Positions 15,454 through 23,981 of a DNA stretch of 64,000 nt are shown here, piece by piece. The DNA is from Nitrospinota bacterium (GTDB taxonomy: Bacteria > UBA8248): positions 1 through 64,000 of the forward strand of contig JAYGFR010000031.1 in assembly GCA_046581755.1 (NCBI GenBank), in the 5' to 3' direction. The notes below the pieces were generated by a model. The model had not been told where the DNA came from, did not search any database, and worked only from the letters and a program-made list of their open reading frames with translations. Both the position numbers and the translations under genes were made by a program. Within the stretch, counting starts at the first letter, position 1. Each line of letters starts with the position of its first letter.

Positions 15454-16303
15454 TCATGCGGCCGCGGCGCCTCCCGCGACGATGAGAACCATCCCCCCGG
15501 CAGCGGCCAATCCGATCCGCTCGCCCAGAATCAGCCAGAGAAAAAAGGCCGAGAGAAACGGCGCAAAGTAGGCCATCGCCCCGAGGAGAGCCACCTCCCC
15601 GGCCGAGACCGCGCGCTCCCAGGCGAGAATCGCCGCCCCGATCGTGACCGCGCCGAGATAGAGAATCGCCCCCCACGCGGCGGGCGGCGGATCGGGCCAC
15701 CCCGCCGCGAACAGCCAGAGCCCCGAAAGAAAAACGCTCCCTACCGAGGCGGTGAGCAGAAACGCCCGGCCCCCGCCCCATTTTCTGAGCAAAACCGTAT
15801 AGCTCGACCAGGCCACCGCGCTCCCCAGCGCGAGGGCGTAGCCCAGAATATGGCCCTCCTCGAAAGCCGCCCTCTGCCCTCCGGCAACCAGGGCCGCCCC
15901 CGCCGCCCCGAGCAGCGCGCCGGCCGCGATCCGCGGGCGGAAGGGCTCTCGAAGAACAATCCAGGCCAGGAGAACGACCAGAAGCGGCCACAGGTAATTG
16001 ATCAGCGTCGCCTCGACGATGGGAGCGCGGCGAATCGCCTCGAAATAAAACGCGCGAAAGAAGAACAGGCCCCACAGGCCGAGGAGCCGGCCCCGCCAGC
16101 GCTCGCGTGCATCCCGGGGCTCAAACGCGGGGGGGCAGCCCGAACAGGCGGGGAAGGATGCCGAAGGTGAGCGCCGCCGCCGCAAACCCGCCTCCCAGCA
16201 CCCAGGGCGGATGCGTCTCTCGAAGGGCCGTTCCCGCCGCTGCCGCCAGCGTCCCCCAGCAGAATATGGCGAACAGCCCCCACCCCAACGATTTCATGTT
16301 CAT
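15454..16303 (-). pseudogene. DMT/EamA transporter, frameshifted at a C7 run (16129-16135)
   Basis: N-part MNMKSLGWGLFAIFCWG... and C-part ...EATLINYLWP...AYFAP are in different frames. Removing one C joins them as LPPAFEPR. Confidence 0.8.
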
Positions 16304-16419
16304 GGAATTTTCCACGTGCTTTGAGATACGGTCTCGGCTGCCTATAATCGCGCCATCGAATTCCAAGCGCCCCGACGCATTTCACCGGGCGGGCTGTCCC
16401 GCCCGCAAAGGAGACCCGC

Positions 16420-16692
16420 ATGAACGATCAAACCGACTTCCGGAAATTCTACCGCGACGCCCACGCCACCGCGCTTCTGACCGACCGCGAGAAAAAACTC
16501 ATCGGCATCGCGGTCGCCATCGTCCGAAACTGCCAACCCTGAGTGGACCACCGCCTGGCGGCCGCCGGGAAAGCCGATATCCCAGAAGAGGTGCTGGACG
16601 CCACGTTCGATCTCACCACCGCGGTGATGGCCGGAATCGGACAGAGCATGAACCGGCGCTACAAGGATTCCCTGAAACCGAAAGAGGGGTAG
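16420..16692 (+). CDS. AhpD/carboxymuconolactone-decarboxylase-like selenoprotein (C38-x-x-U41), 90 aa
   Basis: AAGGAG RBS, then ATG 16420. LTDREKKLIGIAVAIVRNCQP-TGA(16540)-VDHRLAAAGKADIPEE... continues to TAG 16692. Hairpin follows the TGA. Confidence 0.85.
16554..16569 (+). promoter_or_regulatory. Candidate SECIS hairpin (AhpD-like gene)
   Basis: CCTGGC-GGCC-GCCGGG; the loop starts at +18 after the TGA. Confidence 0.65.
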
Positions 16693-16705
16693 CGGGCGGG
16701 GAGGG

Positions 16706-17374
16706 CTAGCGGACCTCGGCGCGGAGAACGTAGACATGGCGGGCGAGGGATTCCACTAGGCGGGAGGGATCGAAATCCCGGGGAGTGGTGATCTGGACCC
16801 GTACCCGCATCGGGCCGCCTTCGGGATCTTTTTTCACGTCCATCTCCCGGATATCGCAGCGCTCCTTGGAAAGAATGTCCTCGAGCTCCTGGAACATCTC
16901 TTCCTCCTCCCCGCCGTTTGCCACAATTTCCAGAAGCTTGAAGCGGCGCCGCCCGGAAATTCGACGGCCGACTTTTTTGAGCAGGCCCAGCGAAACCAGC
17001 ATGATCACCACCACCGACACAGCCTCGACGTGGAGGCCCACTCCCACGGCCAGGCCGATCCCCGCCGTGGTCCAAATGCTCGCCGCCGTGGTCAGCCCCC
17101 GCACCGAAGCGCCCATCCGGAGGATGGCGCCCGCCCCCAAAAAACCGATGCCGCTGACGACCTGGGCCGCGATGCGGCCGGGGTCGTTCGTGGGACTCCC
17201 CTCGGCCACGCGCATGGAGACTTCCATGAGCAGGGCGGAGCCGAGGCAGAGGATGATATGGGTGCGAAGACCGGCGGGCTGATTGTTGCGCTCGCGCTCC
17301 AGCCCGATGAGGCCGCCGAGGAAGGCGGCCTCGATCATGCGGAAAATGAATCCGATTTGGTCGGGGAGGATCAA
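16706..17374 (-). CDS. MgtC/SapB family protein
   Basis: GLIGLERE...PAGLRTH and RIAAQVVSGIGFLGAG...GLTTAASIW motifs. Confidence 0.92.
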   Translation of the reverse strand: MILPDQIGFIFRMIEAAFLGGLIGLERERNNQPAGLRTHIILCLGSALLMEVSMRVAEGSPTNDPGRIAAQVVSGIGFLGAGAILRMGASVRGLTTAASIWTTAGIGLAVGVGLHVEAVSVVVIMLVSLGLLKKVGRRISGRRRFKLLEIVANGGEEEEMFQELEDILSKERCDIREMDVKKDPEGGPMRVRVQITTPRDFDPSRLVESLARHVYVLRAEVR

Positions 17375-18168: not shown

Positions 18169-19485
18169 CTAATCCCCTCGGTCGAAGCGGACGATCCCGC
18201 CCGAAACCGTCGTCCGGACAATCGCCCCGGGACGGAAAATATCGGCGAGCGCCACCTCCGCGGCGCCGGGCGGGGGCGCGATGACGGCGAAATCCGCCAC
18301 CCCGCCGGAGGTCAGCCGGCCCACCCCCTCGTCCGTGAACCCCAGGGCCCCGGCGCCGTTCACCGTGCAGATTTCCAGGAGCGCATCCGCCGTCAGGCCC
18401 GGGTCCGCCTCCCAGAGCGCCGCCGCCTCATCGAGCAACGAGAGCGAAGGGCTGCTCGCCCGGCTGTCCGTTCCGAGGCAGAGCCGGAGACCGGCACGCC
18501 GCATCCCGGCGGCATCGGCGAAAGGATGCCCGAAATAGGCGGTCGACCGGGGACACAGGCAAACCACCGCCCCGGCGCGCGTGAGAAGCTCCCAATCCTC
18601 CTCGTCCGTCTGGTTGCAGTGGACCGCCAGATCGATGTCCTCCAGGACCCCCGCATCGGCCAGGTAGCGCACGGGCGAGCAGCCCGGCGGATCGAAGCCG
18701 TTGACCGCGCTCTCCAACGCTTTGTGCATTTCGGCGAACGCGCCGCCACCGTCCTTGAGGAACCGCACCTCTTCGGGGCTTTCGGCCAGATGGGTGGCCG
18801 AGGGCCAGGTCCGACCGCGCGCCTCCTCGAGCGCCAAGCGGTAGAGCGGAATCGATGTCGTGTAGGGCGCATGGGGACTGACCCCATCCCTGAGAAATTC
18901 CGCCCCGCCACCGGTCTCGCCACCAGTCTCGAACACCCCATCCGCGGAGGGAAGCCTTTGGCGGACAATCGAATCCGCCTCGGCAGGGGCCAGCCCCAGC
19001 ACCTCGCTGAACACCACCCCGCGCATCTCCATGAACGATAGGATCACCCGGCTGTGGCCCGAGGCCGAAATATCTCCCACACAGGTGACGCCCGAGCCAA
19101 ACGATGCGATCGCGCCGAGCCGGGAGGAGGAGAGAAAAAGAGGGGGCGGCCAGCCGCGCGTCTCGCGGACCAGGGCCACGATCCACTCGGCCATCGGCGC
19201 GCGCGTGGCCTCGAATCCGCTCAGCTCGAGGTGGGTGTGGGCGTTCACGAGACCTGGGACGAGAACCGCCCTTCCGAAATTCCGCTCGGGAACCAGCGGC
19301 CCCTTGGGGCGGACCTCCGCCTCCGGGCCCACCGCTTCGATGCGGCCGCCCCGGGTGAGGACCGCTCCGCCGCGAATGGGCGGGCTCCCGGCCGGGCACA
19401 CGAGATCGGCCCGCCAGAGGTTTTGTCTTCGAGAGGGGGTCTGCTCCGCGCGGTTTCCGTTTTCCGGGCCGCTAGCTGAGCTCAT
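18169..19485 (-). CDS. Amidohydrolase, probable aminodeoxyfutalosine deaminase
   Basis: PGLVNAHTHLELS, SPHAPY, HLAES, VHC and LGTDS motifs. Lies downstream of mqnC. Confidence 0.78.
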   Translation of the reverse strand: MSSASGPENGNRAEQTPSRRQNLWRADLVCPAGSPPIRGGAVLTRGGRIEAVGPEAEVRPKGPLVPERNFGRAVLVPGLVNAHTHLELSGFEATRAPMAEWIVALVRETRGWPPPLFLSSSRLGAIASFGSGVTCVGDISASGHSRVILSFMEMRGVVFSEVLGLAPAEADSIVRQRLPSADGVFETGGETGGGAEFLRDGVSPHAPYTTSIPLYRLALEEARGRTWPSATHLAESPEEVRFLKDGGGAFAEMHKALESAVNGFDPPGCSPVRYLADAGVLEDIDLAVHCNQTDEEDWELLTRAGAVVCLCPRSTAYFGHPFADAAGMRRAGLRLCLGTDSRASSPSLSLLDEAAALWEADPGLTADALLEICTVNGAGALGFTDEGVGRLTSGGVADFAVIAPPPGAAEVALADIFRPGAIVRTTVSGGIVRFDRGD

Positions 19486-19717
19486 GATATTTGCGCGGCC
19501 TCAGGAAACCCGTGCCCGGACCCTTCCCGAACCGGTAGGCCGCGCGCCGGAGACTGGCCAGGTCATGTTCCCAGCGCCAATCGTTGACCTGGAGCCTTGT
19601 TCTCAGGCGGCCCGACTCCCACGCACACATGGCGGCGTAGGCGATCACGAGAGCAACGCCCCAACCGGGGAGGATCAATAAGAGGATTAAACCGAGAACG
19701 ACGGACAAGGAAGCCAT
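19472..19717 (-). CDS. Small hypothetical membrane protein
   Basis: Tightly packed between mqnC and the deaminase, with a hydrophobic N-terminus. Confidence 0.45.
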   Translation of the reverse strand: MASLSVVLGLILLLILPGWGVALVIAYAAMCAWESGRLRTRLQVNDWRWEHDLASLRRAAYRFGKGPGTGFLRPRKYHELS

Positions 19718-19719
19718 GA

Positions 19720-20799
19720 TCAGATCAACTCATAGAAAAAATTTCGCCGCCGGAGGGTGAAGCCCGCGGCCCCGGCCATGCGGTGAAGATCGGCTTCGTT
19801 CAGGCAATGGACCGTACCCGCCGAGCTTACCACGTTCTCCTCCAACATGGTCGAGCCCATGTCGTTCGCCCCGAAGCGCAGCGAAAGCTCGCCCACCTTC
19901 ATCCCCTGGGTCACCCAGGAGGATTGGATGTTCTCGAAGTTGTCCAGGTAGAGGCGGCTGATGGCCAGGGTGCGCAGATACTCGCTGCTGCCCACCGTCT
20001 GCGCCTTGAGCGCCGCCGATCCGTCGTTCTGGAACGTCCAGCAGATAAACGCCGTGAACCCGCCGGTCTCGTCCTGGAGCTCCCGGAGGCGGTCCAGGTG
20101 TTCGATCCGCTCGGCGGGGGTTTCGACGTGGCCGAACATCATCGTCGCCGACGAGCGAAGGCCCAGCCGGTGCGCCTGGCGCATTACGTCGAGCCAGCCA
20201 TCCGAATCCACCTTGAGGCGCGCGATTTGGCGCCGGACCCGGTCCACCAGAATCTCGCCGCCCCCGCCCGGTATCGAATCGAGGCCCGCCTCCCGGAGGC
20301 GGACGATCACCCGCTCGTAGGGAATGTCCTCGAGCTTGGAGATATGGTGAATCTCGGGCGGGCTCAGCGCGTGGAGATGGAGATCCGGATACTCCATCTT
20401 CAGCCAGCGGAACAGATCTTCGTACCATTCGATCCGAAGGTCCGGGTGATGCCCTCCCTGGAGGAGGATCTGCTTCCCGCCAGCGGCATAGAGCTCGTCC
20501 AGCTTTTGGCGAATCTCCTCCTTGGTGCGGATGTAGGCCTCGGGGTGATCCCCGGGCGGGCGGTAGAAGGCGCAGAAGGTGCAATAGACATCGCAGACAT
20601 TCGTGTAGTTAATGTTGCGGTCGATGCAGTAGGTGGCAAAACCTTCGGGGTGCTTTCGGGCGCGGACCTCATCCGCCGCCGCGCCCAGGGCGGGCAGATC
20701 GTCTCCCTCGAGCAGGGCCAGGCCCTCCTCCATCGAGAGCCGCTCGCCCCCGGCTGCTTTTTCCAGCGCCTCGTAAAACGCCGATGTCGCCGTCGTCAT
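19720..20799 (-). CDS. mqnC: Cyclic dehypoxanthine futalosine synthase (radical SAM)
   Basis: DRNINYTNVCDVYCTFCAF, LQGGHHP, PGGGGEIL, QSSWVTQG and EENVVSSAG motifs. Start ATG 20799 after GAGG. Confidence 0.92.
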   Translation of the reverse strand: MTTATSAFYEALEKAAGGERLSMEEGLALLEGDDLPALGAAADEVRARKHPEGFATYCIDRNINYTNVCDVYCTFCAFYRPPGDHPEAYIRTKEEIRQKLDELYAAGGKQILLQGGHHPDLRIEWYEDLFRWLKMEYPDLHLHALSPPEIHHISKLEDIPYERVIVRLREAGLDSIPGGGGEILVDRVRRQIARLKVDSDGWLDVMRQAHRLGLRSSATMMFGHVETPAERIEHLDRLRELQDETGGFTAFICWTFQNDGSAALKAQTVGSSEYLRTLAISRLYLDNFENIQSSWVTQGMKVGELSLRFGANDMGSTMLEENVVSSAGTVHCLNEADLHRMAGAAGFTLRRRNFFYELI

Positions 20800-20894
20800 G
20801 ATTTCCTCGGATCCGGTCGCCCGGGGTGATATGGAGCGGGGAGTATACGGGGGTTTCCCCATCCGGGCGAGGGTGGGCATCCTCCCGCCAATTG

Positions 20895-20925
20895 TTGACA
20901 AGTCCAGATATTGGGACTATATAAT
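20895..20925 (+). promoter_or_regulatory. Sigma70-like promoter with a dyad in the spacer
   Basis: TTGACA at 20895 and TATATAAT at 20918-20925. Spacer dyad AGTCC-N8-GGACT. Confidence 0.55.
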
Positions 20926-21979: not shown

Positions 21980-22522
21980 CTAGATACTAATCACCTTCCC
22001 GTTGAGCTTGATCTCGCTTTTGAGCGGGACGGCGGCCTGGACCATGGCTTCGGCGAAACACCCCTGCTTGGCGTTTTTGATGAGGGCGAGGACGCGCTCC
22101 TCGGGGGCGTCGGATTCGACGGTGAAGTACGTCCGGGTTTCGAGGCATTCGGCTTTCACGGTGCCCCTCAGGACGGAGCCGGAGAGAAGGTAGTCCATCT
22201 CGACGCGGACCTTGCTGCTCTTGTATTCGATTTTCATCATGCTCGCGTACCGCGAGAGTTGGGTGAGCAGTCAGAAGCCGACTCCCATGCAGATGTAGGT
22301 GAGGGGCTGGGGGTGCTCGTCCTTTCCGCCCAGATCGGCGGGCTCGTCGCACATGACCTCGAAGTGGCGGTGTCGGCCGACCTTGAGCTGGGAGCCCGGG
22401 GGCGCCTCGGTGTCGGCGAACTGCTTGACCAGAAGGCCCTGCCGGGGGAGCTCGGGTTTGTCGATCACCCGCTCGCCGGGGGCGGTGCTCATGTCGCGGT
22501 GGAGGAGGGGCTTATCGTTCAT
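21980..22522 (-). CDS. OsmC-like selenoprotein, paralog 1 (Sec84), 180 aa
   Basis: CDEP..GG.D..PQPLTYICMGVGF-TGA(22271-22273)-LLTQLSRYA continues in frame into track ORF 21980..22240, which carries a second Cys in NAKQGCF. Confidence 0.87.
22242..22256 (-). promoter_or_regulatory. Candidate SECIS hairpin (OsmC-like 1)
   Basis: CTCGCG-GTA-CGCGAG at +15 to +29 after the TGA. Confidence 0.7.
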
Positions 22523-22559
22523 GGGACGCCTCTTCAAGAAAAAGGAATTGGAGCTGGGC

Positions 22560-23981
22560 TCATCCGACCGGCGGCCGAAGCGCCCGGATTTCCGGGGTCG
22601 CACTCTCGTAGGCATGGGCGCACCGGAGCGCGGCGGCCTCGCGCCAGGGGGCGGTGACGATGTCGAGCGAAAGGGGCAGGCCGATTTTGTTCAGCCCCAT
22701 GGGCACGACCAGCGAGGGGCAGCCGGTCATGTTGTGGCAGGAGAGAAACGGGCGGTGGAGGTAGCTGAAGGGAAGGTCTCGCCCGTTCATCTCGGCCATC
22801 AGGGTTTCGATGGGCGGGGCGGCGCAGGGGACCGAGGGCATGATCATGGCGTCGGCATCTTTTAAAAACGCGGCCGCCTCGCGCCGGAGCAGGACCCGCT
22901 CTCGCATGGCGTGGACATAATCGTCCAGCGGAATCTGGGCCGACCACTCGTAGCGCTCGCGCACGTCGTCTCCATAGCCATCGGGGTTTTCCTCGTAATA
23001 CGGCCGGTGAAACGCGGCGAACTCGGGCCCGGCGATCTTGGGAAACAGCTCCCCGAAGCGGCCGGCGTTCGGGAAGGAGACCTCCTCGATATTCGCGCCC
23101 AGATCCCGGAACACAATCGCCGCACGGGCGAAGGCCTCTAAAATCTCGGAGTCCACCTCGGAGTTAGAGTAAAAATCAGGACAAATAAAAATCCGGCTGC
23201 CCGCGACGCCCTTGTCGATCCCCTCGGTGTAATCGGGCACGGAAACGTCCCGCGTTTTCGAATCCAGCGGATCGAAACCGGCCATGACGTTCAGGAACAT
23301 CGCCGCGTCTTTTGCGCTGCGCGTCATCGGGCCGCAATGGTCCAGGCTCAGGACGTTCGGGCAGATCCCCCGGATGCTCACCCGCCCGTGGGTGGGCTTG
23401 AGGCCGACGATGCCGCAAAAGGCCGCCGGGGTGCGCACCGATCCGCCCGTGTCGGTGCCCAGCGCGGCGGGGATCATGCCCGCCGAGACCGCCGCCGCCG
23501 AGCCGCCGCTCGAGCCGCCGACGATACGATCCGGGTTCCAGGGATTGTGCGAGGTGCCCCAGTGGGGGTTGATGGTGGTCGATGCGGCGGCGAACTCGTG
23601 GGTATGGGTCTTCCCGATCAGGATGGCCCCGGCCCGCTTGAGGCGGGCGATGACTTCGGCGTCCTCTGCGGGCACGTTGTCCCGGTGGAACGATGATCCG
23701 TTCGTGGTGCGGATTCCGGCGGTGTCGATGATGTCCTTCGCACCGTAGGGGATGCCGTGCAGGGGGCCCCGATAGCGGCCCGCGGCGATTTCGTCTCCGG
23801 CCCGCCGGGCCTCCTCCATCGCCAGCTCGCCCGTGACGGTCAAAAAGCCCAGGTACTCTTCGTTCAGCGCCTCGATGCGCCCCAGGAGGGCCTCGACGAT
23901 TTCGGCCGGGGAGAGAGAGCGGTTTTTAATTTTCCCGGAGAGCTCGAATACGCTCAAATCGCAAAGGGCATCATCCACCAC
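22560..23981 (-). CDS. Amidase signature family protein
   Basis: GPLHGIPYGAKD, GGSSGGS and GTDTGGSVR motifs. Start GTG about 23981 after GGAGGA. Confidence 0.9.
   Translation of the reverse strand: MVDDALCDLSVFELSGKIKNRSLSPAEIVEALLGRIEALNEEYLGFLTVTGELAMEEARRAGDEIAAGRYRGPLHGIPYGAKDIIDTAGIRTTNGSSFHRDNVPAEDAEVIARLKRAGAILIGKTHTHEFAAASTTINPHWGTSHNPWNPDRIVGGSSGGSAAAVSAGMIPAALGTDTGGSVRTPAAFCGIVGLKPTHGRVSIRGICPNVLSLDHCGPMTRSAKDAAMFLNVMAGFDPLDSKTRDVSVPDYTEGIDKGVAGSRIFICPDFYSNSEVDSEILEAFARAAIVFRDLGANIEEVSFPNAGRFGELFPKIAGPEFAAFHRPYYEENPDGYGDDVRERYEWSAQIPLDDYVHAMRERVLLRREAAAFLKDADAMIMPSVPCAAPPIETLMAEMNGRDLPFSYLHRPFLSCHNMTGCPSLVVPMGLNKIGLPLSLDIVTAPWREAAALRCAHAYESATPEIRALRPPVG

Follow-up and report, generated by a model that had tools for sequence, protein, structure and literature searches.

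Does the stretch at 16420–16692 hold two short reading frames separated by a stop codon, or one gene whose internal TGA is read as selenocysteine? It lies in the 64 000 nucleotides of a Nitrospinota bacterium contig that we call the window and, as the initial annotation pointed out, the ORF list under table 11 (at least 60 aa) has no such frame. We are close to certain that it is a selenoprotein gene. Its 90 codons run from ATG to TAG (16690–16692) with TGA as codon 41 (Table 1), and translation with TGA as selenocysteine (Sec) gives 90 residues with a C38-Q-P-U41 motif, which bears out the earlier reading LTDREKKLIGIAVAIVRNCQP-U-VDH. The AAGGAG ribosome-binding site named there is also in place. 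The TTGAGA-16-TATAAT promoter agrees with the consensus at 11 of 12 positions (shuffles expect 0.1), and 17 of the 25 orthologous loci have a perfect TATAAT 35–75 nt ahead of the start. Two competing frames were set aside: an overlapping plus-strand frame (16107–16709) matches no Pfam family, and we take an opposite-strand frame (16342–16737, −) to be the conserved frame's shadow.

Table 1. Position of the gene and of its sequence features in the window.
Feature	Position	Strand	Evidence
CMD/AhpD-fold selenoprotein gene, Arg-type variant, 90 codons	16420..16692	+	PF02627 score, orthologs, pN/pS, model
C38-Q-P-U41 motif; TGA 16540-16542 as putative selenocysteine codon	16531..16542	+	TGA conservation across loci
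Arg45 codon, site of AhpD His137 / RclX His	16552..16554	+	alignment to 7Y4R and 3BEY
SECIS-type hairpin: 6-bp stem, GGCC loop, 17 nt past UGA	16554..16569	+	pairing, covariation, synonymous constraint
Ribosome-binding site AAGGAG, ATG 6 nt further	16408..16413	+	sequence; purine-rich site precedes ATG in orthologs
Predicted sigma-70-type promoter TTGAGA-16 nt-TATAAT	16321..16348	+	consensus match, orthologs

The TGA is conserved. Searching 41 genomes gave 25 matches (the organism's own genome, 23 of 24 from its family and one of two from its order; 14 more distant genomes gave no match), and codon 41 is TGA in all 25. TGA also occupies the motif in 26/26 loci of a genome collection, a set that partly overlaps the 25 genomes. 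A sister clade was recovered from metagenomes; among the best 80 of its 136 confirmed loci 79 could be parsed, of which 77 have TGA and two TGC, all 78–95% identical to one query. Purifying selection acts on both sides of the TGA, with pN/pS of 0.28 for codons 2–40 and 0.26 for codons 52–82; homology is not confined to the first 40 residues and the part after the TGA is conserved. Cysteine aligns with the TGA position in distant Cys homologs, as proposed beforehand. Natural Sec/Cys allele pairs occur at ∼ 90% identity. The two TGC alleles (L090:1820 and L133:4118) retain the SECIS-type hairpin and are likely recent Sec-to-Cys changes.

A real stop, separating two coupled mini-genes or marking a pseudogene, fits poorly with these copies, since TGA is exchanged for TAA or TAG in none of 111 distinct ones. 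The window does have GTG directly after the TGA and public gene calls present the 49-aa second half as a separate protein, but the next codon is other than ATG, GTG or TTG in 28 of 109 TGA copies, which is evidence against restart. Of 150 listed homologs (173 were found), 37 end at Cxx before the UGA; this end pattern flagged 42 of the 150, five of which are full-length. Reading the codon as tryptophan would account for 10 full-length database homologs with Trp at position 41. However, of 12 W forms tested, P0009, the one for which a locus was available, is letter for letter the table 4 reading of a TGA locus, and two alleles carry TGC. TGA moreover ends more of the genome's long coding-like frames than any other stop (545 of 1358) and RF2 was found, so the code is not one in which TGA means Trp. 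We regard both a stop and tryptophan as extremely improbable. The genome encodes tRNA-Sec, SelA and SelB on one shared contig, and a SelD that itself contains TGA. It is very likely that the downstream hairpin directs selenocysteine insertion at this conserved UGA.

The hairpin is built as the initial annotation described it: CCTGGC (16554–16559), GGCC and GCCGGG (16564–16569). Bacterial SECIS rules in PMC13188914 call for a loop of 3–9 nt with G in its first two positions, a stem of 4–16 bp, a spacing of 16–37 nt and at most −7.5 kcal/mol; the 4-nt GGCC loop, 6 bp, 17 nt and −10.7 kcal/mol of our hairpin lie within these limits. Its presence alone is weak evidence, since similar hairpins follow ordinary TGA ends: a comparable hairpin at 16–19 nt follows 25 of 544 ordinary gene ends in TGA and 25 of 806 in TAA or TAG. 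A wider 16–37 nt rule was positive for 75 of 544 TGA ends and missed the hairpin itself, whose GGCC loop ends can pair. Folded alone, the hairpin is no better than shuffles (z −0.69 to 0.91 over four folds). Comparison of the loci says more. RNAalifold recovers precisely the 6-bp stem, and 138 of 138 stem cells are paired (23 distinct rows) versus 22–51% in slid controls. Compensatory changes affect two pairs (C-G to U-A and G-C to A-U), both from one AT-rich genus, and 180 of 500 shuffles equal this count of two. As the covarying pairs are so few, come from one genus and are matched by shuffles, the weight falls on the sister clade, which uses other stem letters in the same place and forms all six pairs in 77 of 79 loci (best 80 of 136). 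Synonymous divergence also drops over codons 42–51, to 0.23 versus 0.45 and 0.41 in the flanks (permutation P 0.0004, for kin that are not independent).

RNA contigs from three of four runs cross the TGA with the same letters there, and four of five contig pieces lie inside 16374–16814; since these runs were selected for containing the 16420–16692 stretch, and DNA carry-over is possible, we take them as a hint of transcription, no more. Runs with small shares were left aside.

A search with the CMD profile PF02627, suggested earlier as a check, gives 27.7 bits (cut-off 23) when U is read as C, and 20.7 bits, below the cut-off, when the stop is merely read through. This score and the alignment with Cys homologs support the initial annotation in its central point, a standalone AhpD/CMD-fold selenoprotein with Sec in place of the second Cys. 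The structure model (pLDDT 92.9) predicts an all-helical, four-helix CMD/AhpD fold with helices at residues 7–15, 22–35, 39–51 and 56–84. It superposes on Methanothermobacter O27018 (3BEY; TM 0.79, probability 1.0, E 1.1e-3) and on Pseudomonas RclX (7Y4R; TM 0.77) with an rmsd of 1.5–1.6 Å (Foldseek E 0.001–0.014), and a sequence profile search also retrieves both. These two proteins are small CMD folds, with six chains in each entry, whose CxxC aligns with the CxxU of the window protein. They differ in having Cys and a His at the +4 position, and identity is 25–28%; RclX also has the Glu, and the window gene adjoins no RclR-type regulator. Mycobacterium tuberculosis AhpD has the two-helix hairpin with a CxxC-equivalent motif (TM 0.62 to 1GU9, E 1.8), but the window protein is about half its length and has no ahpC neighbour.

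In the NCBIfam scan every model, selenoprotein models included, stayed below its cut-off. The bit scores and cut-offs are 30.1 and 380 for MduS (NF045649), 26.8 and 120 for TIGR04169, 22.4 and 510 for ArsM-AhpD (NF041537), 21.8 and 110 for the GSU3128 ‘distant AhpD homolog’ (NF041047), 16.3 and 310 for the YciW-related model, and 17.5 and 27.8 for TIGR00778. TIGR00777 gave no match, nor did NF041238 at E up to 10. Homology to GSU3128, MduS, ArsM-AhpD and TIGR04169 is weak (E 2e-7 to 1.5e-4) and spans the helical hairpin with the CxxU/CxxC. The GSU3128 model, with 84 positions, comes close in length; unlike MduS and ArsM-AhpD, the window protein has no fused methyltransferase domain. CMD-domain CxxU selenoproteins are not new as such. 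They were reported in 2005 as ‘CMD domain-containing protein’ (PMC1088965), counted as ‘AhpD-like 2’ in the GOS data (PMC2398784), and listed as CMD-like in PMC13188914, with a tabulation in a 2026 review. Members of this CMD-like/AhpD-like 2 family share the PF02627 domain, CxxU and a SECIS hairpin directly after the UGA; our comparison with the published ones covers their descriptions, and depending on their +4 residue (Arg or His) the Arg-type clade may or may not be among them. The window protein belongs to this CMD-like selenoprotein kind, lacks the AhpD relay (see below) and lies outside all named NCBIfam subfamilies.

AhpD catalysis depends on Glu118, Cys130, His132, Cys133 and His137, according to PMC3141380. 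Glu118, His132 and His137 correspond to Lys26, Pro40 and Arg45 in the window protein, and the RclX alignment likewise places Lys26 at the Glu and Arg45 at the His. Here the initial annotation went astray. It had assumed a CxxC..H motif, but the His of its VDH is His44, one residue off the catalytic site and unconserved (His in 12 of 25 orthologs, Arg in 13); the residue four past the second Cys is Arg45, which is invariant in 25 of 25 orthologs and in 79 of 79 sister-clade loci (best 80 of 136). Nor does the ExELI-type helix that it invoked hold up: position 26, twelve residues before the first Cys, is never Glu (0/25; sister clade 0/79, again from the best 80 of 136). Of the five residues behind AhpD peroxidase chemistry, two or three are absent, so the substrate may differ. 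Arg in place of the catalytic His likely means a different route of activation.

The arginine is no Sec-specific adaptation, as it also occurs in Cys-type relatives. Sorting of 89 CxxC/W domains (from 150 listed of 173 homologs) gave 39 with Arg and no Glu, 32 with His and Glu, five with His and no Glu, 13 others and none with both Arg and Glu; a longer paralog on contig C225 of the window's genome has both. Most Arg-type rows are Cys proteins, and the Atlas clusters nearest one such row are mostly from Planctomycetota and Campylobacterota (few records). In a tree of 78 columns, with rows picked by similarity to the query, a 94/83 branch (not starred) separates all 41 Arg-type rows, together with one Trp row, from the rest, and forced monophyly is not rejected (P 0.143). 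One database protein, P0041, has an Arg-type CxxC CMD domain after a prepilin-type N-terminal motif, and may be a chimeric gene call.

How might such a protein work? Sec has a low pKa, the two cysteines of AhpD have separate roles, and peroxiredoxins offer an analogy for Arg45 in their active-site Arg. We think it probable, though well short of assured, that this gene, which stands alone behind a predicted promoter and has its UGA recoded, encodes a selenol/thiol oxidoreductase of predicted four-helix CMD/AhpD fold that does without a Glu-His relay. The SelB–tRNA-Sec complex would bind the hairpin and so insert Sec41, which as a selenolate would be the nucleophile where helix 3 begins. By helix periodicity Arg45 would lie one turn along and could stabilize the anion; we propose that, with Arg45 holding the selenolate, a Glu-His relay is unnecessary. 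Sec41 would then attack an oxidant or an oxidized thiol (peroxide, hypohalous acid or a disulfide), Cys38 would resolve it through a selenenyl-sulfide, and a cellular reductant would recycle the enzyme in trans. From the solved relatives we would expect the chain to form a ring oligomer. RclX protects against HOCl and HOSCN (PMC7950407) and PA0269 reduces H2O2 weakly (PMC3141380); by analogy, these two point to oxidant scavenging.

The surroundings of the gene bear on two other functions. In the window it is flanked by a divergent EamA transporter gene on one side and by convergent MgtC and PCC-domain genes on the other, and its relatives adjoin SDR, CrcB, PCC, dehydrogenase or antiporter genes. 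No peroxiredoxin was found among the neighbours scanned in the window, the relatives and the sister clade, and comparison of gene context revealed no shared operon. Since the gene has a conserved promoter to itself and no neighbouring peroxiredoxin, the ‘peroxidase-partner reductase’ of the initial annotation is unsupported. An AhpD-type adaptor that returns a peroxiredoxin (AhpC) to its reduced state, with a lipoamide system as electron source, could still act in trans: the AhpD fold and the CxxU are there, the genome has 19 AhpC-TSA matches as possible partners, and PMC2398784 reports one Prx-like/AhpD-like 2 neighbour pair in GOS reads. Yet the relay Glu and His are missing, the TIGR00778 and TIGR00777 results speak against it as the scanned neighbours do, and 12 other TGA-bearing CMD paralogs in the genome, nine with the Glu, are better candidates. 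We consider such an adaptor improbable.

Handling of metals or metalloids is suggested by the top NCBIfam matches, namely the AhpD domain of MduS, the arsenosugar-associated TIGR04169 and ArsM-AhpD. The protein might, for example, reduce or donate a ligand to a SAM-dependent methyltransferase, in the manner of the AhpD domains fused to MduS and to arsenite methyltransferase. The scores given above are far under the cut-offs. Of the 79 sister-clade loci (best 80 of 136), 66 have a His-rich SAM methyltransferase gene upstream in the same orientation, 51 of them within 330 nt, but these loci are close kin, 78–95% identical to one query, so the synteny may reflect descent. The window's lineage has unrelated neighbours, and its genome holds no close match to the methyltransferase (best 25–34% identity). 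A role of this sort is, in our view, unlikely, though not far-fetched. The oxidoreductase without a Glu-His relay is the reading that we prefer.

A wider proposal would make the protein a member of an uncatalogued Arg-type CMD/AhpD branch that lacks the Glu-His relay and whose nucleophile is activated electrostatically by the +4 Arg. Its Sec clade would be near-universal in one selenoprotein-rich family, spreading to other lineages, and would make up a selenoenzyme family of its own, differing from AhpD in chemistry or substrate. We advance this tentatively, as something short of probable. Literature searches, outside which most subscription papers lie, returned no paper on an Arg-type AhpD. 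The Arg-type variant may be new; the CMD/AhpD CxxU selenoprotein kind is already known (PMC1088965). The importance is modest. AhpD-like/CMD-like selenoproteins have been predicted since 2005. The analysis recovers in one piece a gene that public gene calling splits in two or misreads with tryptophan, and defines a subfamily outside every NCBIfam model. A 90-residue form that lacks the Glu-His relay and has natural Sec and Cys alleles also provides a compact system for asking whether selenium or arginine can replace the relay.

The selenoproteome of this genome is large, consistent with BSepDB, which (PMC13326102) places three UBA8248 genomes among its ten richest. TGA stands at the CxxU position in 13 of the 26 CMD matches, and 10 of the 19 AhpC-TSA (PF00578) matches have one in-frame TGA. 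Twelve further CMD/AhpD-like genes (about 166–352 codons; contigs C246, C66, C88, C213, C247, C284, C231, C225, C42, C75, C215 and C369) have TGA at CxxU and a downstream hairpin; the relay Glu is found in nine, and the +4 residue is Asn in six, His in four, Arg in one and Leu in one. Several TGA-bearing CMD paralogs lie upstream of a second, Cys-free CMD gene. A CMD match on contig C30 (4055–4294, +) has an internal TAA and is likely a pseudogene or an assembly error. Within the window, two listed ORFs joined by one TGA (21980–22615, −) make up an OsmC-related selenoprotein (NF041052, 161.6 bits; cut-off 95).

Related genome records are labelled mostly Nitrospinota, Nitrospinaceae, Tectomicrobia or ‘bacterium’, with one each from Desulfobacteraceae, Deltaproteobacteria and Pseudomonadales; the Pseudomonadales-labelled locus shares the gene order of the window's family, so that its label is doubtful. 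Among 41 genomes around G041, two have a close ortholog and seven only weak CMD matches. Some neighbouring genes deserve brief mention. Amidohydrolase and MqnC/CofH radical SAM genes (18169–20901, −) lie upstream of the PCC and MgtC genes in the window, and the order amidohydrolase–MqnC–PCC recurs in L043. The sister methyltransferase (L117:2454–3548, +, and 65 other loci, from the best 80 of 136) has a long His-rich N-terminus and often an EVE-domain gene upstream. The EamA gene (15454–16300, −) is split over two frames near 16120–16185 by a frameshift or assembly error, and is a single frame in L003, L005 and L006.
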